From an uncultured cyanobacterium (GTDB lineage Bacteria; Cyanobacteriota; Cyanobacteriia; Cyanobacteriales; CAWCAG01), in NCBI GenBank assembly GCA_963803805.1, contig CAWDOD010000007.1, forward strand, positions 192,001-256,000: DNA of 64,000 nt, in the 5' to 3' direction. The position numbers and the translations under genes are program-made. Positions 800 to 37,324 of this stretch are shown here, in pieces. Below the pieces are notes generated by a model, which was not told the origin of the DNA, did not search any database, and saw only the letters and a program-made list of their open reading frames with translations. The first letter of the stretch is position 1; each line of letters starts with the position of its first letter.

Positions 800-3466
800 T
801 TAACGCCAATTGCCTACTAAAATAAAAGGACTCCAGTAGTAAGGTTTGCGATATTCACCCTCTCTGTTTAATAAACTTAACTGAGCATTTTGTAAAGCTT
901 GTGCTTTCGTCAACCATTCTCCTGCTTCGGTTTTGCTCCCTAACTCCTGATAAAATTTCCCCATCAACATAGCAGTGGATTGATCGTTAACCGGATATAA
1001 AGAGGCAACAGCACTACGCGCCCCTGCTTGCAGTGCTACACCTGCCATACCTAATGCAGCACGTTTGTCGCCACTGGCCGTTTCACAAGCACTCAAAACT
1101 AATAGTTCTATTGCTGTGGTGTTGATTTCTGTTTGGTTTCTAATTAGGTTATCAAATTGGATTAAATTAATTTCTTCTTGGAAGGCATAAAGATAAGTTT
1201 CTTCAGGGCGAGAACTAAAAATGCCGTGGGTAGCAATATGAACTATAGAAAAGGGTTTTGTTTCTATTTGTTGTTGGAAGGTAGCTTTGGTAAAAGTGTT
1301 ATTTTTGATAATTTTACTATTTGGTCTAGATTCCTGAATTTCTATTAGTTCATCCTCAACGTAAGGCAAAGCAGAAGCACCGAGATTTTCTTCGCTAACT
1401 CCTGCTGCTAATAGTAAAGTATCTTGGTCAAGAATTTGTGTATTCTCTGGTATTTGTAAGCCTAAGCTAGAAGCTAAACTATATTTTTCAATTAAATATT
1501 TTTCTCCGTCATGAAGAGTAGCTAGAGGAATACTTCGCAGAGAACCATTTAAGACAAAGGCTAAAGTATCTACTGAATATTTTTGTAATTCTAAGTCGAT
1601 ATCTTGCAAGATCAGTTTATATAATTCTTGAAAAGATGAGGCATTATTAGCAGATTTTTTTTGTTTAATATCTGTTTGTATTTTCTCAACTAAATTATCT
1701 AATTCCTGAGCAGTAATATTAATAGTATAAGTTTTTAGTTCTGATTCTTGGGGTAGCTTAACAACAATTTCTAAACGGTTAGCAAAAATAATCGGATAAA
1801 TAACAGCTACAGGTAAGTTATCTTTGTCAACAATTTCTTGAATAGAAACGCGATCGCCATTTTGCAGTTGACAGCGTAGATAGTCTTCTAATTCCGCTAG
1901 CTGCAACTTTTCCATGACAGCAACTGCTTTTTGCAAATAAGTTTGTCTCTGATCTAAATCTTTGTTGCTGCTTTTTGCTTTTTCTGGTTGTTTAGCAGTT
2001 TGTAACAATAAGTCAGCTAATTCTCGATAAACTGGTTCAACATCATCACGAAAGTTAAATTTGAGGTCAGTATTATTGAGAGACAATAAATCTTTCCTGA
2101 CTTTATCTACTTCATTAATGGCATTTTCATAGGCTGCGATCGCACTCTCTTCTTCTCCCTTTTGACGAATAATTCTGCCTAGCTGCCACTGGGTTTGATA
2201 ACTAAGATCAGCACCATAAACTTCCTGTTTGGCTTGTTGAGTTTCAATTAGTTTGAACGCCTGTTCGGTTAATTGTTGTGCTTCAGCTAATTGTCCGTTA
2301 CTAGCATATAATTGACCTAAATATTTGAGAGCAAAAGCTTCAGAACGAGTATCTCTTAAACTGCGGGCAGATGTAACAGCATTGGTTAATAAATTAAGGG
2401 TATTTGAGTTGAATTGTTTAGCATTGGATAGTTGCATCAAACTATTAGCTAAGTTAAGCTGAGAATAGAGGCGATCGCGCCCAATATGCAAGTTATTAAT
2501 CCCCGCAATAAGTTCAGGTAATTCAGTAAGTAGTTGTCGCAATTGCTGCTCAACTTCTTGGCCAAGTTGAGTATCTTCCTTTGCTAGTTGTAGTAACCAC
2601 GGCTGGGCTTCAATGAGTAAGTTAAGATGGTTCAATTTTGCTTTGTAACTGAGGGCTAAACTAGGAGAATCGGCACTTTGTTGATAATAAATTAAAGCTT
2701 GCCCTAATTTTTCCTTAGCTTTTGTTAAATCATTAGGTATACCAAGGCGTTGATAATTATCTTGCCAGTGGGAGTAAGCTGCCCTGGCAGTATTGCCTAA
2801 ACTGAGGAGAGATTCATGATAACCGGGGGAAAAGTCAGCAGAGATAACTAAACTAGCTTGCAGTAACTCTTCTACTTGTTGCAGATAATCCTTCTCTTCA
2901 TCTCCTGGTAACAGAGGATTTTTTACCTTACCTGTAACTAACAAAAGATTCGCCATCAGCCGCAAACTTGTTGCCTTAATTTCTGAATCTTCTTGCTGCT
3001 GCCAGTACCTAAAAGCAGGAATCAGAGTATTAATTGCTTCACGATGCAACCCTAATTCTTGGAGTGCGATCGCTTGATAAACTTGACTACGATGTAAACC
3101 GGAATTATCCTTCCCTTGGGCATATTGTTCTGCTGCTAGTTGCCAACTGTATAAAGCGGCTTCAGCTTTCCCTATACCAAACTGTATTTTACCTTGAAGT
3201 TCTAACGCTTGGGCTAGCAATTGCCATTTTCGAGGAGAATCAAACTGTTGTAGTTGCGCTAAAGTATTTGCGATCGCTTCCTGGGCTAGTTGCCATTGTC
3301 CCTGTTGTTGATAAACTTGGGCTTGGGCAAGTTGTTTTTCAATTTCTTCTGTAGGTAATGCTTCAGCAACTGTAGTTCCTGTATTTGCAGGCTGAAGGGG
3401 AAAAGCTACTACAGGACAACAGATAATTATTAAGGCGAGGGACAAAGGTAGATGTAGTTTGACCAT
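800..3466 (-). CDS. TPR-repeat + CHAT (caspase-like, HetF family) protease with an N-terminal signal-like hydrophobic segment
   Basis: Helical TPR-like N-terminal region. CHAT catalytic His (HIATHG) and Cys (LSACETA), C-terminal PYYWSPFILVGNW. Confidence 0.92.
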   Translation of the reverse strand: MVKLHLPLSLALIIICCPVVAFPLQPANTGTTVAEALPTEEIEKQLAQAQVYQQQGQWQLAQEAIANTLAQLQQFDSPRKWQLLAQALELQGKIQFGIGKAEAALYSWQLAAEQYAQGKDNSGLHRSQVYQAIALQELGLHREAINTLIPAFRYWQQQEDSEIKATSLRLMANLLLVTGKVKNPLLPGDEEKDYLQQVEELLQASLVISADFSPGYHESLLSLGNTARAAYSHWQDNYQRLGIPNDLTKAKEKLGQALIYYQQSADSPSLALSYKAKLNHLNLLIEAQPWLLQLAKEDTQLGQEVEQQLRQLLTELPELIAGINNLHIGRDRLYSQLNLANSLMQLSNAKQFNSNTLNLLTNAVTSARSLRDTRSEAFALKYLGQLYASNGQLAEAQQLTEQAFKLIETQQAKQEVYGADLSYQTQWQLGRIIRQKGEEESAIAAYENAINEVDKVRKDLLSLNNTDLKFNFRDDVEPVYRELADLLLQTAKQPEKAKSSNKDLDQRQTYLQKAVAVMEKLQLAELEDYLRCQLQNGDRVSIQEIVDKDNLPVAVIYPIIFANRLEIVVKLPQESELKTYTINITAQELDNLVEKIQTDIKQKKSANNASSFQELYKLILQDIDLELQKYSVDTLAFVLNGSLRSIPLATLHDGEKYLIEKYSLASSLGLQIPENTQILDQDTLLLAAGVSEENLGASALPYVEDELIEIQESRPNSKIIKNNTFTKATFQQQIETKPFSIVHIATHGIFSSRPEETYLYAFQEEINLIQFDNLIRNQTEINTTAIELLVLSACETASGDKRAALGMAGVALQAGARSAVASLYPVNDQSTAMLMGKFYQELGSKTEAGEWLTKAQALQNAQLSLLNREGEYRKPYYWSPFILVGNWR

Positions 3467-3496
3467 TGTGATTTGTTCAACTAGTACTCTACCCTC

Positions 3497-3546
3497 TTCT
3501 CTTGTTGTAGTGAGAGATTTTATGCGAAAGAGAAGAATTGTTTACA
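3497..3546 (-). promoter_or_regulatory. Shared upstream motif, copy 1 (TGTAAA-N15-GCATAA-N18-GAGAA), before the CHAT gene
   Basis: Plus strand reads ttctc 3497-3501, ttatgc 3520-3525, tttaca 3541-3546; 30 nt upstream of the ATG. Confidence 0.6.
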
Positions 3547-3631
3547 AAAGTTGACCAAACAACAGACTTTTACCAGTGGAAGCCTGTACAATGCTCCTTG
3601 ATATATTTTTAAGTGTATCTACTAGATAAAT

Positions 3632-5359
3632 ATGAAATCTTGCCTCGTAGCTAAGTATTTCCTCTCCTATTCGTTTTGTTTGCTATTAACTGGATGGTTT
3701 ACCACTACCCTTAGTCTTGCCCAAAACCCACCACCACCAGAAATAGAACCTCCTTCTACCCGTCCTCAACCTTTGGAATCACCACAAAAGCTGCCTCCAC
3801 CGGAAGACTTGTTACCTCCTTTACCTACTCCTACCCCACCAGACAATCCATCTCTCCCGACAGTTGAAACCTTTGAAGTTAAGGAAATTCAAGTAGAGGG
3901 TAGCACATTATTCACCGAAGCAGAGTTAAAGGAAATCATCGCCCCCTTCCTCAACAAATCCCTATCTCTGCCTGAACTTCAGCAGGTAGCATTAGCTGTA
4001 GAGAAATATTACCTTGAGCAAGGATATCTTACTTCGGGGGCTTATGTTTCCCGGTTCGACATTGGGGAAGGCATCTTAACTATTCAAGTAGTAGAAGGGG
4101 GCATAGAAAAGATTAGAATCACTGGTACAAAAAGACTCAATCCTAGCTATATTCGTAGTCGTCTTGCGATCGCTACCACAACTCCCCTCAACAAAGAAAG
4201 ACTCTTAGAAGCTTTGCAACTCTTGCGTAGTGATCCTTTGATTGATAGGATCAGGGCTGATTTATTGGATAGTTCCCGCCTCGGACAAAGTATTCTGGAA
4301 ATTAAAATAACCGAAGCTGATAGTTTTCGCACCGACTTTAGTTACAATAACCAGCGTTCCCCTAGTGTAGGGACTAATCGTTTAGGTTTGAGTTTCAATG
4401 AAGGGAATTTACTAGGATTAGGAGATTCCCTACGCCTAGGCTACTACCACAGCGAAGGCAGCGACAGTTTAGATTTTGGTTATGAATTACCTATTAATCC
4501 CCGTAATGGCAGCATTAGCTTTGCCCATGGTACAACCTCAAGTCAGGTAATCGAAGACCCCTTTGCCATCCTAAATATCGAATCAGACTCCCGCTACTAC
4601 GAAATCAGCCTACAACAACCAGTTAAACGCACACCCAGAGAAGAAATGACCCTTGGCTTAACAGCTTCACGCCAGGAAAGTGAAAGTTCTCTTTTAGGTA
4701 TTGCCATCCCTCTTGCTGTAGGGGCTGATGCCCAGGGGCGTGTCCGTGTCTCCACTTTGCGGTTTTTCCAAGAATGGGTAAAGCGTGGAGACAGGGAAGT
4801 AATAGCTTTGCGATCGCAGTTTAACTTAGGAGTAGGGGCAATGTCTGCCACAATCAACGAAGCTGAACCCGATAGTTTATTCTTCTCCTGGCGTTTGCAA
4901 GGACAGTGGCTGCGCCTACTTGCACCGGATACCTTGTTAGTAGTCAGGGGAAATGTACAACTTGCAGACCAAGCTTTACTTAGTTTAGAACAGTTCGGAA
5001 TAGGTGGGCAAAACACCGTCAGGGGTTATCGCCAAGATTTCTTACTTGCTGACAATGCTGCCACCGTTTCTGGGGAATTACGTTGGCCCATTTTACGGGT
5101 ATCTGATTGGGATAGCGTTTTACAGTTAACCCCTTTCTTTGACTTTGCCACAGTTTGGAATAATTCTAGGAATCAGGGACAACGTAGGGAATTAAATAAT
5201 CATAACTTAGCTTCTGTTGGTTTAGGTTTACGTTGGCAACAGGGGGATAATTTAGCCTTAAGTTTGGCTTGGGGTATTCCTCTGATTAGTGTCGATAGTT
5301 CAGAGAATACCTGGCAGGAACAAGGCTGGCATTTTTCGGTTATTTACAGTCCTTTTTGA
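3632..5359 (+). CDS. ShlB/FhaC/HecB-family two-partner secretion outer-membrane transporter (TpsB)
   Basis: Signal peptide, Pro-rich linker, POTRA-like YLEQGYLTSGA, VRGY motif (TVRGYRQD), C-terminal Phe. Confidence 0.92.
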   Translation: MKSCLVAKYFLSYSFCLLLTGWFTTTLSLAQNPPPPEIEPPSTRPQPLESPQKLPPPEDLLPPLPTPTPPDNPSLPTVETFEVKEIQVEGSTLFTEAELKEIIAPFLNKSLSLPELQQVALAVEKYYLEQGYLTSGAYVSRFDIGEGILTIQVVEGGIEKIRITGTKRLNPSYIRSRLAIATTTPLNKERLLEALQLLRSDPLIDRIRADLLDSSRLGQSILEIKITEADSFRTDFSYNNQRSPSVGTNRLGLSFNEGNLLGLGDSLRLGYYHSEGSDSLDFGYELPINPRNGSISFAHGTTSSQVIEDPFAILNIESDSRYYEISLQQPVKRTPREEMTLGLTASRQESESSLLGIAIPLAVGADAQGRVRVSTLRFFQEWVKRGDREVIALRSQFNLGVGAMSATINEAEPDSLFFSWRLQGQWLRLLAPDTLLVVRGNVQLADQALLSLEQFGIGGQNTVRGYRQDFLLADNAATVSGELRWPILRVSDWDSVLQLTPFFDFATVWNNSRNQGQRRELNNHNLASVGLGLRWQQGDNLALSLAWGIPLISVDSSENTWQEQGWHFSVIYSPF

Positions 5360-5391
5360 GAGAATTTGACTGTTTTGAGTGCGATGGCGAA

Positions 5392-5560
5392 ACCCGCCAC
5401 GGATTAAAATCCATGTCTAGCAGCCTAAGTCATCTTTAAGATGACTTCCAAACGCTGTAGTCTTCCCCAAGAAAAACTGTAACAAAACTCCTAAAAATTA
5501 ATCTCCTAGTCATCTTGAGATGACTTAAGTTGTTAGCCCCGAATTAATTCGCGGGCGGTA
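5392..5560. repeat. Palindromic dispersed REP/MITE-like element with two AGTCATCT-n-AGATGACT hairpins
   Basis: acccgccacggattaaaatcc...agtcatctttaagatgact...agtcatcttgagatgact...gccccgaattaattcgcgggcggt; a related copy lies at ~21254-21385. Confidence 0.7.
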
Positions 5561-5570
5561 TATGAACAAA

Positions 5571-5620
5571 TATTAAGATATCAGTTTCTCTGCATAAAAG
5601 TTGCCGCGTTTTCTAGAGAA
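5571..5620 (+). promoter_or_regulatory. Shared upstream motif, copy 2 (tattaa-N15-GCATAA-N18-GAGAA), before the PEP-CTERM gene
   Basis: gcataa 5592-5597, gagaa 5616-5620; upstream box degenerate; 48 nt before the ATG. Confidence 0.55.
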
Positions 5621-5668
5621 GAAACTAGAAACCCATATTTTAATTTACATGAAAGGGAAGCTTCTACT

Positions 5669-7014
5669 ATGAGATTTAAGCACATTGCTTCTTATCTTAG
5701 CTACAGCGTGCTAACACTTGGTATTTGTTCTCTACCAATTCAAACTGCCCAAGCAGGAACTATTCATAACAATTGGAACTATGTTATAGATTCGCCCAGC
5801 GACGGTACAGAAAGAACAGGGTTTGGATTTAACCCTACTCCTTATCGAGTTGGGGGTTCAGATAACCCCTTTGAAATGTATGGTATGTCCTTGTTGGATT
5901 TAGGCGATCGCGTCACAGTTGCCATAACAGGTAATATGCCTTTAGGAGGGGTTGATGATCCTTGGGGATATGTCAATGACGGTAATACAGCCTGGGGAGA
6001 TTTATTTTTCAACTTTACCGGAGAAGATATTCCTACTGCTAACACACGGGAGAACCTATTTGCTGTTCGCTTTGCAGCTAATAACGAAGCCGGAGTTAGC
6101 GAACTCGGAGTTTACAAAGATATAACTCTCAAAAATGTTGCTTCAATCAACGATGGCTGGCCTACTGTTGATAGATATATCAATGCTGTTGAGGCAAAAG
6201 GCAGTGATCCTTCAATGGGAGATATAGATATAAGAAGTGGCTATTTCGGTGAAGAAAGTTACAACGTAATTGACTCTGGTACAAAAGTAGGTGATGTTGA
6301 ACTCCTTGACTTGCCAGCTTTAACTGCATTAGGGTTAGACTTTGAAAATTTTGATGCTGCTGGTTCAGAAACCTTTGGTTTTAGTTTCGCTAAACCAGAA
6401 GGCTTTATCGGCAGTTTCATCAGCCACATCGTCACAGAATGTTTCAATGATGGAGTTGCCCTCAAAGGTGCTTTAACCCTTGGAGGCCCTGTTCTTCCTG
6501 GCCCAACTCCTGAACCTTGCGTAGTCACAGACGGACAAAAAAATCCTCTGCTACCCAGCTTTATTGATGATGAAGGGTGGGCTGTATTTGAAAATGTAGA
6601 AAGTGGTCTGTGGTATGACCCTGTTGCAGAAATGGGTTTTGAGTTTCAGGCACTAGGGGAAACCCGATTTACTGTGATAGAAGACTTCCCTTGTGGTATT
6701 TCCGAAGATGATACCTTTGATGTTTATGTAGGTTCCAAACCCTATAGGGATCTTGGCCTGATAAAAGCTTAGTTTTTGACTTCCCAGTTAAAGAATTTAA
6801 GATTACTTTTCCCCTTGAAGGTGATTACGGGCGGGAGACTTTCCCTGTGAAACTTGACTTTGCCACTGCAACAGGAACTTTTAGAATGCGTCAAATCCCA
6901 CCACCACCGACTCCTCCTGAACCAGAAAAAATACCTGAACCTGATTCTGTAATGGCAATTCTAGCTTTAAGCCTTTCCGGACTCATTTGGCGATTGAGTC
7001 GCAAGAAAGTTTAG
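5669..7014 (+). CDS. PEP-CTERM (exosortase-sorted) surface protein, with a one-base frameshift near 6757
   Basis: ORF 5669-6772 has a signal peptide (AQA-G). A different frame from ~6758 reads PDKSLVFDFPVKEF...PPPTPPEPEKIPEPDSVMAILALSLSGLIWRLSRKKV*, i.e. PEP motif + TM helix + basic tail, stop at 7012-7014. Confidence 0.85.
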
Positions 7015-7045
7015 GATTTTAGGTTTGTTGCATTTTAATTAGCGG

Positions 7046-7077
7046 AGGGAGATAGCTTGTAAGTTGGCTATCTCCCT
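7046..7077. terminator. Hairpin between convergent genes, likely a bidirectional terminator
   Basis: agggagatagc-ttgtaagttg-gctatctccct, an 11-bp perfect stem. Confidence 0.65.
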
Positions 7078-7094
7078 ATTAATTGTGTTTTCTA

Positions 7095-10000
7095 TCAATC
7101 GTTTCTCAACAAACAACTAGCAAAAGCCTGAGAAGTCAGTATAATTTCACCATCCGGTAATTCAAACCAACCTTGCACTTCTTGAATCGATTGATCTGAA
7201 TGAGATTGCTGTGTATCACTTAATGATGTAACCGATGTATTCAGACTATCAATACTACTACTCAATGGATCAGAAGGGTTAGAAGGTAAACCAGCCCTGC
7301 CGATGTCGATAAAGACAGAATTTTTCTCTCCATTACTTCCTACAGCACAACCTTCAGGTAAACCTTCATCTAAAAAACGATCATCTAAGGGATTAAGGCG
7401 CAGATTGTCATTAACATTGATCTCAACAGTACCATCAATTCCTAACTCAGAACTAGCAGTAAAATCGCTTTCAGAGGTGTTAACCTTTTCAAAGAGTCTA
7501 AAACCAAAAATCCCTTTTGCTGTAGCAGTAATATTACCACCTTGACCTTGTAAAGAACTGGCAATAATATCACTATCTTCTGCAAGAATCGCAACAATAA
7601 AGTCACCAACTCTCAGGGTCATATTACCACCGCTACCTGTACCATTCGCATTGGTCAAAATATCGCTATCCTGGCGCAGAATCACTGATTTATCTACAAA
7701 AAGTTGAATGTTACCGCCATTAGCATTAATTGTTTCTGTTGTCAGCCTTGCACCGTTGGTCATATTAACAGATTCTGCATTGACTAGTATGTCCCCTGCA
7801 TTACCTGAGTTGTTACCACTAAGATTAACTTGCCCACCATTTTCTATGTTTAACAGCTTTGTATTAATTTCAATACCTTGGGCATTACCAGAACCAGAAG
7901 AAGCAAAGACAAGACGACTAGCTTGACCACTATTGGCTACACCACTTACTTTCACTAAGTCTGAAGCATTAACAACTAAAGTTCCGCCTTGACCATCGCT
8001 AACAGTGGATGCGGATACTTCCCCTCCATCTTCAACCAGTAATTGACTGGTGTTAATGACAAAATTACCTGCATTGCCACCACCAAAAGTATCTGATGAT
8101 AAACCACTTCTAACCTGACCATTAGGGGTAGTACCTACAACTTTTACAAACTCTGAAGCATTAATAACAACATTTCCAGCTTGTCCTTGTCCTGATGTCG
8201 AGGCAAAAATCCTTGCACCTTCTTGAAGGGTTAATTGCTTAGTATTAACTGTTAAATTTCCGGCATTTCCTGTACTTGTTGCCCCTAAAAATATGCCGCT
8301 AAAGTTAGCATTGTTAACTGGATTAAAATCGTTACCGATCAAAGTAGCTGACTCGCTGGCATTAACAGTTATTGTCCCCCCTGTTCCTGTACCTTGACTA
8401 AAAGCAGAAACGAAAGAACCATTTTCTAGTTGCAAAGTCTTAGCTTGCATATCAATAACTCCTGCATTGCCATCACCGTTAGTGTTGACGAAAATAAAGC
8501 CTCTGTTTAAAGATATACCTTGTTCTGCGGTTAGAGTAATTTGTCCTGAATCTCCGTTACTGCCTAGGCTATTCATGTCAGCAATGTCACTATTAGCATA
8601 AATACCAGAAGTGTTTTCAATATTAATTTCTTGAGCATCAACACTGATATTTCCTGCTGTTGCTGTACCGATTATTGCCGTTGTACCAGCAGTCCTTGCA
8701 GATAATTCTGCACCATTTTGCAAGGTAAAACTGCCACCACTACTAAGATTAATATCACCTCCTTTCAGAGTAGATGTGTCTGTATAACTCTCATTAAAAA
8801 TTCCTTGAGATAATACCAAAGGCGCGTCGCTGTGGACTCGGACATTGCCTCCCAGTAATCCTCTAGCAAGAATCTCTGCATTAGTAGTAAGTGTTCCTGT
8901 TCCTAAGATAGTTACATCGCCACCATTACCACCGTAAGTATTAAGTGGTAAACCTCCTCCTATATTTTGATCAAGGGCAGAAGCATTTATACCACCTTGC
9001 AAAGTTGTATCTCCCCGTGAATCAATCTGTATAGAACCCCCTCCCTGTACTTCTCTAGTATCTATAACTCCATTAACTGCAATTCCTCCCGGTAAGCTAT
9101 TAGGAAAGAATTGATTTGTTAAAACGACTCTACCTCCGTCACTACCAGCAAACCCAAAAGCAGTAACAATTTCTCCCGTGGTAATATTGGCATTTGCTAG
9201 AGGTGTAGAAAATCTAGGCGGTGGGTTAGCAGTAAAGAAAGAATTACCATCAATTACACTGTTGTCAGGAGTAGGAATCCCCCCTAAAGCGTTCCAATCA
9301 ATGCCTGCCCGTATGTCTAAGGTTGGTCTAGCATTACCATTAATCGTCGGGACTGCTGTACCATCTGATAAATTAAAGTTTGCTAAATCACTATAGGTTG
9401 TAGTTGCGTTAATATTGTTTGTATTTCCAGGGTTAATAGAGTTATTTCCTGTTTCTAAATTATCAATTAATACATCGCCTAAAGCGACGCTACCTCCAGC
9501 TAGAATATGCAAAGAAGCACCCTGATAATCCCCTAAAATCACATCCCCAGAAGTAATAATTATTGGATCATCAGGACTAAATAAATCTCCTAAACTCCCA
9601 TCTAATTTCTCCACACGAAAATTCCCCCCACTCCAATAATGGGCATCACCACCCACTGCATTACCAGAACGCAAAGTTAAATCTCCCCCAGCAAACAAAC
9701 CACTATCAGGATGATTCAGGGCAAAAATATCCACTTTCTCATCACCCTGGACCAACAACTCTCCTCCCGCAGCAGCTACAAAAGGGTTAGTAACACTATC
9801 CCTAATCTTCACTTCGTTTGTCGCCACTAAGTTAACATCACCGCCACCTTGTACTTCACCAGTTAAATCTAAATTCCGTCCTACCAAGGTTAAATCTTGC
9901 CCCACAAGTAACTTACCTCGGTTAACAATTTCCGCACGGGGAACATTGTTTCCATACTGCAAACCAGGACGTATATTAACTGTTAAAAGAGGAGGTGCAT

Positions 10001-10463
10001 CGGGATTAGTAGCACTAAATTCTCTCCCATTTTCTAGCAACAAACTATCAGCAGTGCTAACGAAAAAAGACCCAGCAATATCTAAACGGGCATTTTCGCC
10101 AAAGAAGACACCGTTAGGATTAATTAAGAATAAATTTGCCGTACCGTCAACCCCTAAAGTACCTAATATTTCTGAGGGATTGTTACCAGTTACGCGGGTT
10201 AATATATTGTTGATTGCTGCTGGATTTTCAAAGTAAACCCGTTGCAATTCCCCGACATTAAACTGACTGAAACTGTGAAAAAGATTAGTACCACGAATAG
10301 CGCCGCCAGTGATTAATTCTCCTGGTAGGCCCTTGATTTGGGTATTGTTGATGATTTGGGAGTTTTCTTGTCCCAAGGTTGCATCAGGGGTGATTTGGGC
10401 TTGCAGAGGAGAAGCAGAGAAGAGGGTTGTAGTGAGTAGTAATAAGGTGGTTAGTTTGGACAT
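7095..10463 (-). CDS. Filamentous-haemagglutinin-family TpsA exoprotein (cyanobacterial type)
   Basis: Signal peptide + AQITPD; TPS domain NLFHSFSQF / NLFLINPNG; G/N-rich beta-helix repeats (GNAGNL, GQGGTL); C-terminal IGRAGLPSNP...IQEVQGW. Confidence 0.92.
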   Translation of the reverse strand: MSKLTTLLLLTTTLFSASPLQAQITPDATLGQENSQIINNTQIKGLPGELITGGAIRGTNLFHSFSQFNVGELQRVYFENPAAINNILTRVTGNNPSEILGTLGVDGTANLFLINPNGVFFGENARLDIAGSFFVSTADSLLLENGREFSATNPDAPPLLTVNIRPGLQYGNNVPRAEIVNRGKLLVGQDLTLVGRNLDLTGEVQGGGDVNLVATNEVKIRDSVTNPFVAAAGGELLVQGDEKVDIFALNHPDSGLFAGGDLTLRSGNAVGGDAHYWSGGNFRVEKLDGSLGDLFSPDDPIIITSGDVILGDYQGASLHILAGGSVALGDVLIDNLETGNNSINPGNTNNINATTTYSDLANFNLSDGTAVPTINGNARPTLDIRAGIDWNALGGIPTPDNSVIDGNSFFTANPPPRFSTPLANANITTGEIVTAFGFAGSDGGRVVLTNQFFPNSLPGGIAVNGVIDTREVQGGGSIQIDSRGDTTLQGGINASALDQNIGGGLPLNTYGGNGGDVTILGTGTLTTNAEILARGLLGGNVRVHSDAPLVLSQGIFNESYTDTSTLKGGDINLSSGGSFTLQNGAELSARTAGTTAIIGTATAGNISVDAQEINIENTSGIYANSDIADMNSLGSNGDSGQITLTAEQGISLNRGFIFVNTNGDGNAGVIDMQAKTLQLENGSFVSAFSQGTGTGGTITVNASESATLIGNDFNPVNNANFSGIFLGATSTGNAGNLTVNTKQLTLQEGARIFASTSGQGQAGNVVINASEFVKVVGTTPNGQVRSGLSSDTFGGGNAGNFVINTSQLLVEDGGEVSASTVSDGQGGTLVVNASDLVKVSGVANSGQASRLVFASSGSGNAQGIEINTKLLNIENGGQVNLSGNNSGNAGDILVNAESVNMTNGARLTTETINANGGNIQLFVDKSVILRQDSDILTNANGTGSGGNMTLRVGDFIVAILAEDSDIIASSLQGQGGNITATAKGIFGFRLFEKVNTSESDFTASSELGIDGTVEINVNDNLRLNPLDDRFLDEGLPEGCAVGSNGEKNSVFIDIGRAGLPSNPSDPLSSSIDSLNTSVTSLSDTQQSHSDQSIQEVQGWFELPDGEIILTSQAFASCLLRND

Positions 10464-10506
10464 GGTAGAGTTTTTCTATGAAGATTAGTTGAAATGAAAT
10501 TATGCT

Positions 10507-10739
10507 GTAGGGACGGCCTGCTTGCGTTATTTTTGTACCTCACAAACCGATAAGATTGGGTGATCTTTTCGGGGATTATTGGTGGGGAGGGGGACGTGTA
10601 GGGGCGACCCGCCTACGTTGTTTTTGTACCTCACAAACCAATAAAATTGGGTCGCCCTTTCGGGGTTTATGGGTAGGGAGGGCGACCCAAGATGATTTGT
10701 TTTTGGGTTGCCAAAGTTATGTCAACGGGTCGCCCCTAC
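10507..10739. repeat. REP elements left of RAYT (one degenerate partial unit + one full ~142-bp unit)
   Basis: GTAGGGGCGACCCG at 10598-10611 paired with CGGGTCGCCCCTAC at 10726-10739; internal TTGGGTCGCCCT/AGGGCGACCCAA palindrome. Confidence 0.85.
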
Positions 10740-11269
10740 GGATTGGGATGGGCGATCGCTTGGATATTCATTGAATCCGTTGCCCAGTCCAGAGGATTAT
10801 TGACAATGTAAGCTCGGATTTTTTCTAAAGCAAATTCGTCGGGAATAATTCGGTCATAAAAGTTTCTTTGCCATACTTGTAACTGGGAATTTCTGTTCGC
10901 AATTCTCCATTTTTTGGTAACTTGAGACTTGAACTGCCCAATGATGGCGCTTACAGAATTAGCTGTGGGGCCATTTCTTATTTGAGAAATAGGTTTAGGG
11001 AGAGGAAACTTTCTATTAATAATCATGATGCCATGAAAATGATTGGGCATAATAACATAGCTATCTAACTCAATGTAAGAACGTACTTTAGGAGTTATAA
11101 GCCATTCATGTTCTACAATTTTGCCAAGGGGAGAAAGTTGTACTAATCCGGCCACAATTTTGCTAAGAGTGCATTCTTTGCGGTAGGTACAAATAGTAAT
11201 AAAGTAAGCTCCCGATTGAGTATAATCATATCCCGGTAAACGACGGGAAGAACGATGGTAGTTAGACAC
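10736..11269 (-). CDS. REP-associated tyrosine transposase (RAYT, IS200-like Y1 HUH transposase)
   Basis: RLPGYDY...YFITICT, HUH motif VIMPNHFHGI, VWQRNFYDRII and catalytic Tyr in YIVNNP; flanked by GTAG-type REPs. Confidence 0.9.
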   Translation of the reverse strand: MSNYHRSSRRLPGYDYTQSGAYFITICTYRKECTLSKIVAGLVQLSPLGKIVEHEWLITPKVRSYIELDSYVIMPNHFHGIMIINRKFPLPKPISQIRNGPTANSVSAIIGQFKSQVTKKWRIANRNSQLQVWQRNFYDRIIPDEFALEKIRAYIVNNPLDWATDSMNIQAIAHPNP

Positions 11270-11302
11270 AATTTTTGGTGATTATTTTTGATTAATTATG
11301 CT

Positions 11303-11612
11303 GTAGAGGCGACCCGCCTACGTTATTTTTGTACCCCACAAACCGATAAAATTAGATGTTTTTTCGGGGATTATTTGGTGGGGAGGGCGACCCAATATGA
11401 TTTATTTTTAGGTCGCCAAGGTTATGTCAACGGGTCGCCCCTACGGATTGTTGGGTGGTGTGCGTAAGCGTAGCCATGCCGGAGGCTTATCGTACAGGTG
11501 ACAATTTAAAAATATACCCATCATCAAAATCATGTTGTAGGGGCGACCCGCCTACGTTATTTTTGTACCCTACAACCGATAAAATTGGGTCGCCCTTTCG
11601 GGGTTTATGGTT
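11303..11612. repeat. REP elements right of RAYT (full unit 11303-11444, partial unit 11537-~11612)
   Basis: GTAGAGGCGACCCG 11303-11316 with CGGGTCGCCCCTAC 11431-11444; GTAGGGGCGACCCG 11537-11550; internal spacers nearly identical to the left unit. Confidence 0.85.
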
Positions 11613-11623
11613 GGGGCTGAAAT

Positions 11624-14600
11624 TTAAACTCCAGGAACACGGATATAGCGATCAGGATTACTCGCTGTGTAATCAACAATTCGGTGTAGTGTACCTGCCC
11701 CACCACCATCAAAATTAGTGTTGTAGTGTGATTCTGAAAGAACAACTCGTTTGACTCCATTTTGGTAGTAAGTTTTCTCAACTACAGCTACATGATTTTG
11801 ACCATTCCTTGTCCATTGTGCAATATCACCTGGTTGAGGATCGCTAACGATATACGCTCCATTGGATAGCTGATAGTGCCATTGGTTTGCATTGCCTGAC
11901 ATTGAGTTTAAAGCGGCAGGATTACCTCCTAATTCTTTCACGCGCCCGTGCGCGTACCAAGTACAATTACCTTCAGTTCTACTGTATCCATCAACTAAAT
12001 TTGAGCCATAACTTGCCTGGGAAAAAATATTTCCTGTTGTGTAAAACTGAGGACGAGCTTTGAAATAGTTTACTCCTTGCTGAGTAAGTAGAGGTGTTTT
12101 AACAGTACCTCCGCCTCCACCTCCACTATCTCCGCTACCTTCACTTATATAATAAGCAGCAACATAACCCACCTGACCATTAGCTTCAATCTCATACCAA
12201 TCAGTCCGATTACCTGGATAATAAGCACCACCAGAAACTTGCTTGCGAATTGTCACCGCAGTTCCTTTAGGTAACTTGCCAATAATAGTAGAACCACTAA
12301 CAGAAGGTTTGTTGCGGAAATTGAGAGAAACATTACCTACATTAGCATTAACATGACCTTTCTTCGTAGTATTGCCAGGATCGGAACTGCCACCGGGTTG
12401 AATAGGAGGCTTAGAATTGGGATAGCCGAAAATGTAAGCACTGGGAACCCAATAAGCTTTACCATCACGCCAGTAACGATACCAGAGAGCATCAGGCTTA
12501 TCAGTCCAAATATCATTAACAGACTCCCCGTAAGTCCAGCCATCGAAATGCAAAGTCTTTTTGTAAGGTTCAGCTAAACCACTGCGGTCTTCATGCTTAG
12601 GGCTATTACGCAAAGCTACGCCAATACTAGGCCCTACCCAACCGGAGAAATTCTCCGCACGAAAATCAGTTGGTTGAGAAACAATATCGACATAGTAGGC
12701 AGCGACAAAACCTTGCTGCCCATCTACCTCGACTTTGTACCACTCATCACTTAAACCATTCTCGTAACTTTTTCCTTTGACAGACTCCAAAACCTTCAAA
12801 GTTTTTCCTTTAGGAAGCTGGCCAATCAGATTATCTCCTCTTACTTCAGGAGAAGTTCGGAAATTGAGAGGGTCATTTCCTACTTTAGAATTAACCACAC
12901 CAGATTTAGGTGGTGCAGGCTGAGGTTGAGGCTTGGGACTAGGGGGAGGGTTGGAACCAGTTGCGCTACCTGTGAAGAATTTCTCAATGCCACGGGCAAT
13001 AGCATGACCCGCTTTTTCTACATTGCCACGGCTCATCCCTGGTGCATCAATAAACAAAGATTCTGTGAGAACGGCAGGAACCCCTAAAGGAGCATTGCGT
13101 AATACAGATAAATCTTTTGTTTTTACTCCCCGATTAGGAATCTCGTTATCAGGAAAGACAGCATCTAGTTCACTGTTGACAGCTTTAGCTAGTTCAGAAT
13201 CAGCACTGGGTGCATTGGGATGAGAATAAACTTCGTGGCCTTGGGCATCCTTGTTAAAGGCATTGAGATGCAAAGAAACAAACAGATCGTATCCAGCAGC
13301 CCGTTGACCAATCTGTGCTAAGGATATAGCTTCATCAAGGATTTTTACCTCTGCACCGAGTTGGCGTAGGTGTTCAGCAACAATTTTTGCTTGGTGTAAG
13401 TTTTCTGTTGCTTCATTTGTACCATTACCACCAGCACCAGGATCGAACCCTGTATCAGTAATACCATGGCCTGGATCGAGGATAATCTTTTTACCAGCGA
13501 GGGTATTAGTATTTGGAACTGGAAAGTTTTGGAAAACAGCACGTTCCCAAGGAGTAGTTGGTTCTTTCCCGATAGGAGGAGTTTGCTGCAATTTGGGGTT
13601 GTATACTTCTGGGTCAACGGTTCTTGCCAAACTAACTGCCGCAGCAATGTTTAGCAATCCTGCCCCTGTTTCTAAATCTTCTCCTAACTCGTTTATATCT
13701 GCTGCTGTAGATTTGAGGATGTCAATTACTTGGCGATAATTCAAATTAGGGTTCGCAGCCCAAACTTGAGAGGCAGCCCCCGTTACCTTCGCGGTAGCAA
13801 CAGAAGTACCAGCCATTGTCCCTACACCATTACCAACAGTAGATACGACTGGAGTTTCTAAGTTGCCACCATTAGCAACAATGTCCAACCCTTCGCCATG
13901 ATTTGAATATTCAGCCCGATCAAAGCCTTGCCAAACAGAAGTTTCACCACTAATTTGTTCTGCTGAACCTACGGTAATAACGTTATCAAAATGCTGAGAA
14001 GCTTGTCCCAAAGCTGACATAACTTCACCCTCATTTCCTGCGGCAACGGCAACGAGAACATTGTTTTGACGGGCATATTCTAAAGCTGCCATTTCTGAGG
14101 GGGTAAACTCATAACGGGTGGTTTCTACACCATCAATATCAATTTGAGTTAAATCAAAGCTTAGATTTGCGATTCCATTAGGTTGCCCCGACTCCCTAGC
14201 TGCATCTACAAACTCCATTAAAGATTCCGCCCATTCACCTGAACCAACAGCCCTTCCTAACCAAAGGGGTGCATCATCATTGATACCATCAATCCCAATA
14301 TCATTATCATTCTGGGCTGCGACAATACCTAAAACATGAGTACCATGTTCATTGCCTTCTCCTGGGGTTAGCAAAGGGTTAGCATCGTTGGCAATCTTAT
14401 CTGTTCCTAAACTAATTTTTTCATAGTCTAAGTCAGGATTATCACCACTAAATCCAGTATCAATAAAGCCAATCAGAGGTTGGTCTTCAACAGGGAAATT
14501 ATAATCGGTAACAGGAGGATCTACTTGAGGGTTAGCATATTCTAAAATAGCTTCCCCTAAATCGCTGTCTCGCCACTCTTTCCCCTCTTCAATGACATTA

Positions 14601-15424
14601 TCTAGTAATTCAGCTTCTCCGGTTGCCCCACGTACTTGGAAAATTAAATCGTTGTAATCCCTATCAGAGTTATCATCAACCCGCCAGTCTTCCATCACAA
14701 AGGTGTTGCCATCCCCCGTTACATCAGCAATTTGTCCTAAATGGAAAGCATCATCAGGGTTGGCTGTAGCCACAGAGAAAAGAGGACGCAAATTACCTTT
14801 GTCAGGATTATCGAGAAACTCTTCTACAGTGCCGTTAGGAATAAGCATAAAACCGAAGCGATCGCCCGGCTTCATTTTTACAGGATCTCCTTGTTGATAA
14901 ATACCAGAGTTACGATCAGCTTCTCCTAATTCCCCGGAAAATTTTGCCCCTTCAGTAGCATCAGAAATAACAACATGACCTAATTCAGAATCACTCAAAG
15001 CTCGGTTAGCAGCTTCAAAACTAAAGTCTTCCGACTCTGGGTTCAACCCTTCTAAACTAAAGATGGCTAACTCTCCTTCGTAACCACCACCATCAAAGAG
15101 GAAGTCAACGGTTACTTCCCCAGTGTCCCCAACAGTAAAAACCCCTGAGTCGAAGTTGGGGGAAGAGATATCAGCTATTTCAGCTATTTGATCTGTTTCG
15201 AGTTCATCAAAGAAGCTAATCGGCTCTAATTCTTCATCGCTAAAGTCTTGGTCTATTTCTGCTAAAGGATCAATATCTTCTGGTAGATCAACGTCGAAGA
15301 GGGCTAAGTCAACCCCGTCATCACCGCCATCTAATAGCCCACTGGGGGTAAGAATTGGTTCTAAAATAAAGGCTTGAATTTTGGATTTGCCAGAACGAGA
15401 AGAGTTATTTTCAGGTAGTGCCAT
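11624..15424 (-). CDS. Multidomain exported hydrolase: LEP-type leader, DUF4114-like domain, subtilisin S8, N-acetylmuramoyl-L-alanine amidase (Amidase_3), SH3b-like repeats, CHAP
   Basis: FILEPILTPSG (aa 19-29); MEDWRVDDNSDRDYNDLIFQV; S8 triad FIDTG / EHGTHV / GTSVA; amidase LDPGHG..NEA..SLHLNA..VLTE; SH3b LNFRTSP and LNFRNKP; CHAP GNCTWY...HVAVVE. No Sec signal, no RTX repeats. Confidence 0.88.
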   Translation of the reverse strand: MALPENNSSRSGKSKIQAFILEPILTPSGLLDGGDDGVDLALFDVDLPEDIDPLAEIDQDFSDEELEPISFFDELETDQIAEIADISSPNFDSGVFTVGDTGEVTVDFLFDGGGYEGELAIFSLEGLNPESEDFSFEAANRALSDSELGHVVISDATEGAKFSGELGEADRNSGIYQQGDPVKMKPGDRFGFMLIPNGTVEEFLDNPDKGNLRPLFSVATANPDDAFHLGQIADVTGDGNTFVMEDWRVDDNSDRDYNDLIFQVRGATGEAELLDNVIEEGKEWRDSDLGEAILEYANPQVDPPVTDYNFPVEDQPLIGFIDTGFSGDNPDLDYEKISLGTDKIANDANPLLTPGEGNEHGTHVLGIVAAQNDNDIGIDGINDDAPLWLGRAVGSGEWAESLMEFVDAARESGQPNGIANLSFDLTQIDIDGVETTRYEFTPSEMAALEYARQNNVLVAVAAGNEGEVMSALGQASQHFDNVITVGSAEQISGETSVWQGFDRAEYSNHGEGLDIVANGGNLETPVVSTVGNGVGTMAGTSVATAKVTGAASQVWAANPNLNYRQVIDILKSTAADINELGEDLETGAGLLNIAAAVSLARTVDPEVYNPKLQQTPPIGKEPTTPWERAVFQNFPVPNTNTLAGKKIILDPGHGITDTGFDPGAGGNGTNEATENLHQAKIVAEHLRQLGAEVKILDEAISLAQIGQRAAGYDLFVSLHLNAFNKDAQGHEVYSHPNAPSADSELAKAVNSELDAVFPDNEIPNRGVKTKDLSVLRNAPLGVPAVLTESLFIDAPGMSRGNVEKAGHAIARGIEKFFTGSATGSNPPPSPKPQPQPAPPKSGVVNSKVGNDPLNFRTSPEVRGDNLIGQLPKGKTLKVLESVKGKSYENGLSDEWYKVEVDGQQGFVAAYYVDIVSQPTDFRAENFSGWVGPSIGVALRNSPKHEDRSGLAEPYKKTLHFDGWTYGESVNDIWTDKPDALWYRYWRDGKAYWVPSAYIFGYPNSKPPIQPGGSSDPGNTTKKGHVNANVGNVSLNFRNKPSVSGSTIIGKLPKGTAVTIRKQVSGGAYYPGNRTDWYEIEANGQVGYVAAYYISEGSGDSGGGGGGTVKTPLLTQQGVNYFKARPQFYTTGNIFSQASYGSNLVDGYSRTEGNCTWYAHGRVKELGGNPAALNSMSGNANQWHYQLSNGAYIVSDPQPGDIAQWTRNGQNHVAVVEKTYYQNGVKRVVLSESHYNTNFDGGGAGTLHRIVDYTASNPDRYIRVPGV

Positions 15425-15468
15425 TTTAATTATCTGGTAAGAAAAATCAAATTTGCTGTCTTACCTTC

Positions 15469-15518
15469 TTCTCAGGGTGATAAACCACTATTTATGCACT
15501 GAGATACATTTCTTTACA
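15469..15518 (-). promoter_or_regulatory. Shared upstream motif, copy 3 (TGTAAA-N15-GCATAA-N18-GAGAA), before the hydrolase cargo
   Basis: Plus strand ttctc 15469-15473, ttatgc 15492-15497, tttaca 15513-15518. Confidence 0.6.
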
Positions 15519-15559
15519 ATCAGAGCCTTTAACCCATAACTTCAGTAAAAGTATAGTTT

Positions 15560-15610
15560 TGTAACAAAATCGGTAATTGTGCATAAAAGACTAGGGGTCA
15601 GACCTGAGAA
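15560..15610 (+). promoter_or_regulatory. Shared upstream motif, copy 4 (TGTAAC-N15-GCATAA-N19-GAGAA), before the GT4-M50-HlyD operon
   Basis: tgtaac 15560-15565, gcataa 15581-15586, gagaa 15606-15610. Confidence 0.6.
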
Positions 15611-15671
15611 CAAATAGAAGGCTCAACTAATTCCATAACTAACCATCTGTTTTCTCTTGCCATAACCAACC

Positions 15672-16865
15672 ATGTTCAAACAAAAACCAGGGCAGCACTT
15701 TTTCTTACTTTTCCCCAACATCTTCAACTTCAAAGGGGGTATACAAGTTTACTCTCGCTTTCTTTTAGAAACTCTCCAGGATTTATATCCTGAAGCTAGT
15801 TATGAAGTTTTTCTGAAATACGACAGTAAATTCCCTCAAAACCATTCCTTTCTGCCGCAAACTAACTTTCACTGCTTAGGTAAATTTCCTCGTTGGTGGC
15901 AAAGTTTCTTTTTATTACTACAAACAGTTATTCTTGGTACTTTACAACGCCCAACCTTAGTTATTGCCACCCACATTAACTATGGAATAGCCTGTTATTG
16001 CCTGAAAAAATTAACTGGCACTCCCTATTGGGTTGTCATTCATGGTTTGGAGGGGTGGAACATAGAAAATCCTCTGTTGCAAAGGGTTTTACAATCTACT
16101 GATAAAACCATTGCGGTAAGTGAGTATACCAGGAAACGTTTGCTTAAAGAACAACCGCTTTCCCCCCAACAAGTAGCTATTTTACCAAACACCTTCGATC
16201 CTACACAATTTCGCCCTCAACCAAAACCAGCTTACCTGCAACGGCGTTATGGTTTAACCCCAGATCAACCTGTAATTCTGACGGTAACTCGCTTAGGGAC
16301 TTCAGCAACCTACAAAGGTTACGAACAAGTACTTCAGGCTTTAGTTAAGCTACGTCAACAAATCCCCAACTTACATTACCTTTTAGGTGGAAAAGGGGAT
16401 GATCTTCCCCGAATACACAGTTTAGTACAGCGACTCGATTTAACTGACTGTGTAACTTTGACAGGATTTATTCCTGATGAAGAATTATGTGACCATTACA
16501 ATCTTTGTGATGTCTTTGCTTTACCTAGTCGAGGTGAAGGTTTTGGCATTGTCTATTTAGAAGCCCTTGCCTGTGGTAAGCCCGTATTAGCAGGGTGCGG
16601 GGATGGGGCAGTAGATCCTTTAGGGCAAGGAGAATTAGGTTGTTTGGTGAACCCAAATGATGTTGCAGAAATTGCGGCTAAACTCCAAGAAATTTTAGAA
16701 AAAACTTACCCTAATACTTTGCTATTTTCTCCCCATCTACTCCGGGAAAAAACTATCAGACGTTATGGTGTAGCTCAATTTTGTCATACCTTAGCTAATT
16801 TGGCTGACTTTGAGACATCGGTAGCAAATCCCCGTCCCTACCCATCATTGATAACTGGTAACTAA
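15672..16865 (+). CDS. GT4-family (GT-B) glycosyltransferase
   Basis: KGGIQVY N-terminal motif, YKGYEQV, EGFGIVYLEALACGKPV (EX7E signature). Confidence 0.92.
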   Translation: MFKQKPGQHFFLLFPNIFNFKGGIQVYSRFLLETLQDLYPEASYEVFLKYDSKFPQNHSFLPQTNFHCLGKFPRWWQSFFLLLQTVILGTLQRPTLVIATHINYGIACYCLKKLTGTPYWVVIHGLEGWNIENPLLQRVLQSTDKTIAVSEYTRKRLLKEQPLSPQQVAILPNTFDPTQFRPQPKPAYLQRRYGLTPDQPVILTVTRLGTSATYKGYEQVLQALVKLRQQIPNLHYLLGGKGDDLPRIHSLVQRLDLTDCVTLTGFIPDEELCDHYNLCDVFALPSRGEGFGIVYLEALACGKPVLAGCGDGAVDPLGQGELGCLVNPNDVAEIAAKLQEILEKTYPNTLLFSPHLLREKTIRRYGVAQFCHTLANLADFETSVANPRPYPSLITGN

Positions 16866-16866
16866 A

Positions 16867-18300: not shown

Positions 18301-18332
18301 AAACAGGTATTACCTATTACCCATTACCTATC

Positions 18333-34487: not shown

Positions 34488-34545
34488 GACTAGAGAATGA
34501 AGTGATCGCCTCAGTCTTAAAGAATAAGCAATATTTTTATAACAG

Positions 34546-34579
34546 GTCAGTGAAGAGTCTTTTCTTTCACTGACTTTTT
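34546..34579 (+). terminator. Rho-independent terminator
   Basis: gtcagtgaa...ttcactgac stem followed by ttttt. Confidence 0.65.
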
Positions 34580-34762
34580 CTTGCTTCTTACTTTTCATAT
34601 CTCTAGCGAAATCGTATAAACACGATGCTTTGTAGAATTATCTCCTCATGCAAAATCAATTTACTAAGTATAATTTTTTACTTTCTTAAACAAAAATAAA
34701 TTGTTAATGTTATAAATACTCACTAATATGTAACAATTACTTAAATTATTTAAGATACCTAT

Positions 34763-36505: not shown

Positions 36506-36524
36506 ATTCGTTATTATCTTATCA

Positions 36525-37184: not shown

Positions 37185-37255
37185 CTATTGCTTTTTCATT
37201 TTTGACTCTCTAAAAAATGGCAGACTATTAAATTAATTAAAATAAGCTGTAGTTC

Positions 37256-37311: not shown

Positions 37312-37324
37312 TACCTGATAGCTT

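Follow-up and report, generated by a model that had tools for sequence, protein, structure and literature searches.

The 64,000-nucleotide (nt) stretch of DNA from an uncultured cyanobacterium considered here (hereafter the window) raises a question of gene regulation: does a motif of three short boxes, present ahead of genes or operons for a protease, an exosortase-dependent surface protein, a secreted hydrolase and parts of an export apparatus, place all four under one type of promoter, and, if so, which sigma factor would read it? The motif proved to be real and non-trivial. Judged from comparative sequence data, it is probably the promoter of a regulon of filamentous cyanobacteria governed by an extracytoplasmic function (ECF)-like sigma factor, which is assumed to be encoded outside the window. 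The best explanation as a whole, with the anatomy of the promoter included, would be an autoregulated promoter of a divergent ECF-type (group 4) sigma factor, a fuller account that we hold with somewhat less assurance.

Written toward the gene, as are all boxes given here, the motif reads TGTAA(A/C)-N15-GCATAAA(A/T)-N16/17-GAGAA(G/C) and occurs at four intergenic sites, every one aimed at a gene (Table 1), with distances from GAGAAN to the ATG of 30, 48, 44, and 61 nt at sites 1 to 4, respectively. Sites 3 and 4 are arranged back to back. The positions, orientations and gaps reported in the original prediction were all confirmed in the sequence, as was its statement that the spacers are unlike each other while boxes and spacing are kept. 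Comparison of the four sites also brought out an extra shared feature, T-A-(G/A)-(A/G)-A, about 5 nt past the third box.

Table 1. Motif sites, their boxes, and the associated genes in the window (bits are weight-matrix scores unless a profile is named).
Feature	Position	Strand	Remarks
Site 1, TPR-CHAT gene promoter region	3488-3558	minus	39.4 bits
Site 1 boxes	TGTAAA 3546-3541; GCATAAAA 3525-3518; GAGAAG 3501-3496	minus	target ATG 3466
TPR-CHAT (caspase-like protease) gene	800-3466	minus	site 1 target; Pfam CHAT 6.2e-52
Site 2, XDD3 surface protein gene promoter region	5559-5629	plus	29.0 bits
Site 2 boxes	TATTAA 5571-5576 (degenerate first box); GCATAAAA 5592-5599; GAGAAG 5616-5621	plus	target ATG 5669
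XDD3 family exosortase-dependent surface protein gene	5669-6772	plus	site 2 target; NCBIfam NF041930, 196.8 bits, cutoff 80
Site 3, hydrolase gene promoter region	15460-15530	minus	22.4 bits
Site 3 boxes	TGTAAA 15518-15513; GCATAAAT 15497-15490; GAGAAG 15473-15468	minus	target ATG 15424
Secreted multidomain hydrolase gene (DUF4114, peptidase S8, amidase_3, SH3, CHAP)	11624-15424	minus	site 3 target; 1266 amino acids
Site 4, GT4/HExxH (M50-like)/HlyD operon promoter region	15548-15618	plus	44.4 bits
Site 4 boxes	TGTAAC 15560-15565; GCATAAAA 15581-15588; GAGAAC 15606-15611	plus	target ATG 15672
Operon of three genes (GT4, HExxH metalloprotease, HlyD)	15672-19895	plus	site 4 target
GT4 glycosyltransferase gene	15672-16865	plus	first in site 4 operon
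HExxH intramembrane metalloprotease gene	16867-18300	plus	similar to daptide type, M50-like
HlyD-family adaptor gene	18159-19895	plus	last in site 4 operon
ShlB/FhaC-type TpsB outer-membrane transporter gene	3632-5359	plus	divergent from CHAT gene; no motif aimed at it
TPS-domain exoprotein gene (TpsA-like)	7095-10463	minus	no motif upstream in window

How far do these sites rise above chance? The two-box part, GCATAA-N17-20-GAGAA, was observed 5 times in the window against 0.18 expected, a count that no shuffle out of 100 attained; one of the matches, at 1185-1214 on the plus strand with a spacer of 20, is additional to the four sites, lies antisense within the CHAT open reading frame (ORF) and looks like a chance occurrence. 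The first two boxes taken alone (TGTAA-N16-GCATAA, at most one mismatch) were not significant in the window, with 4 matches against 2.1 expected and 14 of 100 shuffles reaching 4, and GCATAAA occurs 11 times on its two strands, four of these being the sites. A mismatch-tolerant three-box scan of the 64 kb returned only the four sites and one weak 4-mismatch match at 32382. With a weight matrix built from relatives, the four sites score 22.4–44.4 bits, the next match in the window 10.5, and the highest non-ascertained match in 733 kb of non-cyanobacterial control DNA 14.7. The same two scans found no site ahead of the housekeeping genes of the window, where the original prediction had noticed none either. 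Sites 1, 3, and 4 fit the pattern used for the genome scan described below by construction; site 2 was not ascertained by that pattern, and its matrix score of 29.0 is an independent confirmation.

Where else does the motif occur, and in what company? A collection of species genomes (185,579 genomes) was scanned with the pattern TGTAA-N16-GCATAAA-N17/18-GAGAA, all three boxes fixed, and the matches in unrelated, non-cyanobacterial phyla served as a built-in control. Among the loci listed (L numbers hereafter), 43 of 120 have cyanobacterial titles, nearly all of them filamentous, including Nostoc, Scytonema, Stigonema, Iphinoe, Tolypothrix, Spirirestis, and Coleofasciculus, and further Microcoleus, Roseofilum, Spirulina, Oscillatoria, Kamptonema, and Potamolinea; the loci listed with two matches are cyanobacterial in nine cases out of nine. 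Five loci titled “uncultured bacterium” (L008, L023, L038, L041, L054) also fit the extended consensus given next. The cyanobacterial copies are mostly intergenic: stop-free frames of 100 codons or more enclose the motif in 8 of 46 instances, as against 61 of 71 in the control.

The extended consensus, drawn from 32 non-redundant cyanobacterial sites, adds conserved bases that the scan had not fixed: T at -8 (27/32) and A at -5 (31/32). TTT stands ahead of TGTAA (25/32 at each position) and ahead of GCATAAA (22–25/32), which is followed by A at position 28 (28/32), and a second T(G/A)AA or TGTAAA copy lies 10 nt upstream of the first box. GAGAA is followed by the run s-t-a-a-a-Y-R-G-A, with a pyrimidine at +10 in 29 and a purine at +11 in 31 of the sites, counted from the G of GAGAA. 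The non-cyanobacterial matches have nothing in common beyond the bases fixed in the scan pattern; conservation of the fuller motif is restricted to one phylum. By eye, a GGCG...CGCC hairpin flanks GCATAAAA in the promoters of relatives that are of the two-partner secretion (TPS) type, and this hairpin is absent from all four window sites.

Which genes lie downstream was surveyed for 66 weight-matrix matches of at least 18 bits among the loci listed. TPS-domain exoprotein genes follow most often (15/66), and next a gene for a sigma-70-family protein of 211–229 amino acids (aa), with the site 44–66 nt upstream (13/66); GT4 genes follow two matches (Roseofilum L103 and L110, 58–66% identity to the window GT4) and a DUF4114-S8 gene follows one (Spirulina L020, 58% identical to the window hydrolase), and a trypsin-PEP-CTERM gene lies downstream of the motif in Roseofilum L052. 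This recurrence before TPS exoprotein, DUF4114-S8 hydrolase, GT4, and PEP-CTERM protease genes of relatives favours the single regulon originally proposed for the window. A search of motif-bearing loci for linked sigma-70-like and DUF1822 genes had also been proposed, and it located both in other filamentous cyanobacteria. The sigma-headed operons have the order sigma, DUF1822, CHAT-CHASE2, DUF928, a small gene, and often TPS, where DUF1822 is invariably the gene next to sigma. Of the distinct loci with flanks, 14 of 31 cyanobacterial-like ones have a sigma homologue there, and none of 47 non-cyanobacterial ones does. Because the sigma gene itself carries the motif in relatives (13 copies), the factor would be an autoregulated alternative sigma. 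One further sigma promoter, that of L038, lacks the first box and keeps the other two some 137 nt ahead of the gene.

Other arrangements were seen at the motif-bearing loci of relatives. In Stigonema, the top copies of L028 (10001-10520), L024, L087, L096, and L104 score 58.6–69.5 bits; for several of them, the next 400 nt contain no start of an ORF of 50 aa or longer, with a non-coding transcript or a decayed target as possible explanations; the DNA downstream of the L028 copy contains palindromic repeats and then a convergent CHAT gene. Tandem copies 138–196 nt apart precede TPS genes in L007 (9805 and 10001) and L021 (10188 and 10050), the upstream copy of each pair having the variant GCGTAAAA. 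In Iphinoe, a short conserved frame, M-T-(S/N)-E-Y-N-I-F-D, comes after the motif (L039, from ~10215; L065, from ~3270 downward) and ahead of unrelated larger genes, and may be a small-protein member of the regulon. In Nostoc L030 (9102-9911, minus) and L057 (10265-11545), a motif copy divergent from the sigma operon is aimed at a response-regulator/AraC gene and a PAS histidine-kinase gene, respectively, and the spacer ‘gcagtagc’ is common to these two copies and the Stigonema sigma promoters.

What kind of sigma factor is it? Its source annotation is “sigma-70 family RNA polymerase sigma factor”, and an alignment of 25 sequences contains, by eye, the signatures of regions 2 and 4. The original prediction had envisaged an ECF-like factor, with a linked sigma-70-like or HetZ-like gene: the NCBIfam models that match the protein are of the ECF type only, which upholds the former, and no HetZ-named model is among those matches. 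An AlphaFold model (mean predicted local distance difference test, pLDDT, of 84.7) consists of two helical domains, with a linker of low confidence between them (residues 120–127), and its top Foldseek matches are ECF sigma factors, with sigmaE (1or7; E 0.018, probability 1.00) followed by SigK, SigH, AlgU, CnrH, and SigW. The modelled fold thus appears ECF-like, which would call for a sigma2 and a sigma4 domain with neither sigma3 nor sigma1.1, membership of the ECF group (group 4) not being proven by these matches. A promoter of the group 3 (SigF/SigJ) or sigma-28-like kind, TAAA-N15-GCCGATAA, was dropped since the linked regulator proved ECF-like.

The invariable neighbour, DUF1822, is predicted to be a partner of this sigma. 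A model of their complex gave an interaction prediction score from aligned errors (ipSAE) of 0.89 against 0.01 for the best control, which passes the mark applied to this score; among 157 solved complexes 116 attain that mark, and among 215 mismatched pairs 2 do, a benchmark that holds roughly with the 14-row alignments built here. Contacts agreed by at least 84% between model runs and partner pLDDT was at least 79. In the model, the first ~160 residues of DUF1822 are in contact with the linker as well as with both domains of sigma, in a manner that resembles that of anti-sigma domains. The modelling supports binding of sigma by DUF1822, which may be an anti-sigma-like partner.

Paralogous sigma-DUF1822 pairs occur at plasmid loci L121 (Tolypothrix PCC 7601), L122, L123, L125, and L126, near CHAT, WD40, TPR, or CAAX-protease genes. 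Boxes two and three come in a separate variant for each plasmid pair, a sign that one genome may contain several sigma/promoter pairs insulated from each other. The upstream regions of the distant plasmid sigma paralogues (L124, L125, L128; 29–32% identity) could not be aligned to the motif.

Which of the three boxes would such a sigma contact? The assignment originally put forward, with GCATAAAA as the -35 box and GAGAA(G/C) as the -10 box, is the one preferred here, with moderate confidence, because the spacing between these two is constant and the first box is dispensable; the comparative data favour it in a third respect, the conserved pyrimidine-purine step. Second and third boxes are 16–17 nt apart at all sites, and the promoters of the paralogous sigma genes keep 16 nt: GGATAAAA-N16-GATAG in Tolypothrix, Fischerella, and Nostoc, GCGTAAAA-N16-GATAC in Aulosira, and GCAGAGAA-N16-GAAAT in N. 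flagelliforme. Among the same paralogues the first-to-second spacing drifts over 15–18 nt, and the second and third boxes vary with the sigma paralogue while TGTAA is mostly constant. Site 2 of the window and the sigma promoter of L038 have lost the first box and kept the other two. Of 66 sites that have boxes one and two, most of them ascertained, 64 also carry GAGA at +16/17. Counted from the conserved purine, GAGAAs falls at -11 to -6 and GCATAAAA at -35/-36 to -28. In this anatomy, TTT-GCATAAAA at -38 to -28 would be the -35 element, followed by the 16–17-nt spacer and GAGAA(G/C) as the -10 element, and transcription would start at the pyrimidine-purine step, 5–6 nt past GAGAA(G/C) and predicted to lie at ~3490 (minus), 5627 (plus), 15462 (minus), and 15616 (plus) for sites 1 to 4. 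A -10 element of the form TAGAnn with GAGAAG just upstream was tried and is out: C replaces its T at 7 of the 32 sites, and the last position of the hexamer shows no conserved T.

In the preferred anatomy the A/T-rich TGTAA repeat, between about -68 and -51, would have an auxiliary role upstream of the core, and may be UP-like or an activator site of the OmpR-family (RpaB) type. In full, the repeat reads (A/T)(A/T)TGTAA(A/C)-N2-(A/T)(A/T)TGTAA(A/C); many sigma-gene promoters of relatives carry it in perfect or near-perfect form, the window in a half-good one. The original prediction recognised no cyanobacterial promoter consensus in the motif, a view that has to be revised for this box: read on the opposite strand, it corresponds to the HLR1/RpaB consensus, two direct (G/T)TTACA(T/A)(T/A) octamers 2 nt apart, as set out in the relevant passage of PMC6525291. 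By eye, the proximal octamer matches HLR1 at 8 of 8 positions in sites 1, 3, and 4, and the distal one at 4–6 of 8. The likeness extends to the two 8-nt direct repeats, their 2-nt separation, the exact reverse complementarity, and a position upstream of the core promoter in the preferred model; the differences are that the motif repeat is inverted relative to the gene and centred at about -60 in that model rather than at -51.

Several observations weigh against this account. The genome scan was ascertained with three fixed boxes and returned at least 120 loci; it gives neither frequencies nor the full regulon. L047, a locus titled as cyanobacterial, falls short of 18 bits and seems to match by chance, and no ORF follows within 400 nt of certain copies that score high (L028 and its relatives in Stigonema). 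Profile annotation with Pfam and NCBIfam models placed no sigma or DUF1822 gene within the window, the regulator being assumed from other genomes. The sigma is below the curated ECF cutoffs, with 28.7 bits to NCBIfam TIGR02937 (sigma70-ECF; cutoff 42.9), 32.4 to the SigK model (226), and 20.7 to Pfam Sigma70_r4_2 (25.7); the Foldseek matches are weak, with the E of 0.018 as the best, template modelling (TM) scores of at most 0.34, and 0 of 500 listed at 0.001 or below, and a profile search of PDB sequences gives RpoE and SigK at E ~0.1 only. Lastly, ECF promoters usually have AAC in the -35 and CGT in the -10 element, which GCATAAAA and GAGAA lack; AAC is held only by the upstream TGTAAC box.

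This last point favours a shifted assignment of the boxes within the same sigma and regulon, because TGTAAC-N16-CATA resembles the usual ECF elements and classical ECF promoters such as those of Bacillus subtilis sigmaX and sigmaW, TG(T/A)AAC-N16/17-CG(A/T)(C/A). TGTAA(A/C) would then be the -35 and (G)CATAAAA the -10 box, with transcription starting about 7 nt after it (predicted at ~3510–3512, 5605–5607, 15482–15484, and 15594–15596 for sites 1 to 4), and GAGAA...AGA, at about +10 to +25 of the transcribed leader, would be an operator or an RNA-level signal. The first-to-second spacing is 16 nt in 49 of 50 main-family sites, a count that owes most to the scan pattern itself, the TrAA/TGTAAA copy farther upstream would occupy the position of a proximal UP subsite, and a simple sigma-70 scan of site 1 also gives TAAACA-16-TAAAAT. 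Even so, we consider shifted boxes unlikely: they leave the near-invariant GAGA, the pyrimidine-purine step, and the AGA without a known role, they sit badly with a first box that is dispensable and whose distance to the second drifts while that from second to third stays at 16 nt in the paralogues, and the positions of the would-be start (29–35) are weakly conserved in the 32 sites. As for an RNA-level signal, the window leaders have no significant or shared fold (z-scores of -0.19, -0.79, -1.52, and +0.37), and positions 1-21000 have no Rfam match at E up to 1. Still less probable, in our estimate, is a composite site for ordinary transcription factors acting with a housekeeping or group 2 sigma, where an RpaB-like OmpR-family regulator would bind the TGTAA repeat and another factor GCATAAAA plus GAGAA, and the ECF-like sigma gene would merely be another target. 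The double TGTAA with its 10-nt period, found in 18 of 50 sites, its correspondence to HLR1, the activation by RpaB from sites centred ~50 nt upstream of the start (a passage of PMC6525291), and the response-regulator and histidine-kinase genes downstream of the Nostoc L030 and L057 copies are what speak for it. Yet the HLR1-like box is the least constant part of the motif, and the sites offer no acceptable sigma-70-type -10 with a final T: matches to housekeeping TTGACA-N17-TATAAT (9/12 or better, the -10 hexamer having A as its second and T as its sixth base) were not enriched, at 20 against 23.3 expected in the region, and only site 1 has a 9/12 match inside the motif. Moreover, the tight link with a sigma gene that always bears the motif is the signature of an autoregulated alternative sigma.

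There is finally the explanation that involves no common regulation at all, the four copies being due to chance or the relic of a recent duplication of a promoter fragment or mobile element in the island. All four sites do lie within 12 kb, in an island that has a repetitive extragenic palindromic (REP)-associated tyrosine transposase (RAYT) gene and REP-like repeats. A duplicated fragment is nonetheless ruled out by spacers that differ entirely between sites with kept boxes and spacing; the enrichment is far beyond the shuffles, and the same architecture is kept across Nostocales, Coleofasciculus, Microcoleus, Roseofilum, Spirulina, and others, ahead of homologous as well as non-homologous genes; as a whole, this explanation is extremely improbable.

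Returning to the preferred reading, with GCATAAAA and GAGAA as core elements of a sigma-specific promoter, how would the system operate? In relatives, the same promoter ahead of the sigma gene would provide positive autoregulation, and DUF1822, co-transcribed with sigma, is predicted to clamp it; further products of the operon are a CHAT-CHASE2 membrane protease, DUF928, and a TPS exoprotein. In the window, promoters of this type would jointly switch on the TPR-CHAT protease, the exosortase-dependent surface protein, the large cell-wall hydrolase, and the GT4/HExxH/HlyD export operon, provided that they depend on this sigma. One can speculate further on a phylum-specific module, whereby a CHASE2-CHAT sensor protease inactivates the DUF1822 anti-sigma and frees sigma, and where a promoter grammar of its own and an RpaB-type HLR1 input bring about a joint launch of exoproteins and export. 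The output of such a module might comprise TPS exoproteins, CHAT proteases, PEP-CTERM proteins, wall hydrolases, and the GT4/HExxH/HlyD exporter, and its purpose could conceivably be cell-surface remodelling or kin conflict, coupling an external cue with the light/redox state; the whole of this extension is tentative.

The proposed system has known counterparts, each of which it resembles in part. Like the autoregulated promoters of Escherichia coli sigmaE and B. subtilis sigmaW and sigmaX, it would have two short boxes at a fixed distance of 16–17 nt, with the same promoter before the sigma operon and scattered envelope or secretion genes, and with a sigma of modelled, apparently ECF-like two-domain fold co-transcribed with a partner predicted to bind both domains. 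It departs from them in the sequences of its two boxes, unlike AAC and CGT, in a third conserved element, the upstream repeat, in a sigma that scores under the curated cutoffs, in a partner, DUF1822, that is not a known anti-sigma domain, and in its likely sensor, a CHAT-CHASE2 protease in place of a site-1/site-2 protease pair. A pairing of a regulator with a DUF1822 protein in filamentous cyanobacteria may also be represented by HetZ and PatU3 in heterocyst patterning, PatU3 being, as we take it, a DUF1822 protein; the present sigma, of ~215 aa, differs in matching ECF models only, and no link to heterocysts was seen at the loci considered here.

Closest in gene content are the neighbourhoods with an ECF sigma, DUF1822, and a caspase (CHAT) domain described by Kaur, Iyer, Burroughs and Aravind (eLife 2021; PMC8195603), for which it was proposed that the caspase domain activates the system and the ECF sigma mediates the transcriptional output. 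The trio of genes is the same; the operons considered here add CHASE2, DUF928, and TPS genes to the neighbourhoods of that passage, and the motif adds a promoter consensus and candidate targets, which the passage does not name. An alternative-sigma consensus that defines a surface/motility regulon in a filamentous cyanobacterium has a precedent in the SigJ J-Box (GGGaAtacT, an extended -10) in promoters of hormogonium genes of Nostoc punctiforme (PMC6495340), where both the J-Box and the second motif of that account differ in sequence from the three-box motif. The N. punctiforme promoters (-60 to +20) in supplementary file 2 of the same source include GCATAAA in 11 and TTTGTAA in 18 cases, and none has the three-box motif. 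DUF1822 and DUF928 are absent from the main text, and from part of one supplement, of the paper that reclassified ECF sigma factors (PMC7826278), and searches of open-access full texts, including one for TGCATAAAA with cyanobacteria, which led to unrelated papers, retrieved no description of the motif.

Alternative-sigma regulons of cyanobacteria are poorly mapped, and the CHAT/TPS/DUF928/DUF1822 clusters, many of them in filamentous species, have no known regulation or function. A promoter consensus together with a specific sigma and a predicted partner would make the regulon predictable in any genome, and the consensus yields precise predictions for start sites and mutagenesis. It would also give access to the signal behind the secretion of large exoproteins and hydrolases and, if the account is true, would enlarge ECF biology by a novel promoter specificity and perhaps, in DUF1822, by a new family of anti-sigma factors.

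As to the other genes of the window, its TPS-domain exoprotein gene is unlike those of the relatives, where this class is the one most often downstream of the motif, and beyond its upstream region lies the RAYT gene (10736-11269, minus). Three copies of a short GC-rich hairpin, each followed by ACGTT(G/A)TTTT, at 10602-10614, 11307-11319, and 11541-11553, flank the transposase gene; together they are probably a RAYT with its own REP elements, inserted between the TPS and hydrolase genes, and this insertion may have displaced the TPS promoter.

A type I secretion unit (32736-41898) comprises two tandem RTX/PMP-repeat paralogues (583 and 580 aa), then genes for a peptidyl-prolyl isomerase, an exporter of the C39-peptidase ATP-binding cassette type with a cyclic nucleotide-binding (cNMP-binding) domain, and HlyD; by three-box scan and weight matrix, the motif is absent from this unit. 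A dihydrouridine synthase (Dus) gene is split into overlapping ORFs (42235-42696 and 42641-43249, minus) that match Dus profile positions 2–160 and 159–303, which points to a frameshift or a sequencing error. At the window end lie a gene for Trypco1, the trypsin-co-occurring domain (61926-62288), and a Trypsin_2 peptidase gene (63088-63999), with an HSDR_N-like gene on the opposite strand between them, a group that is possibly a conflict system.

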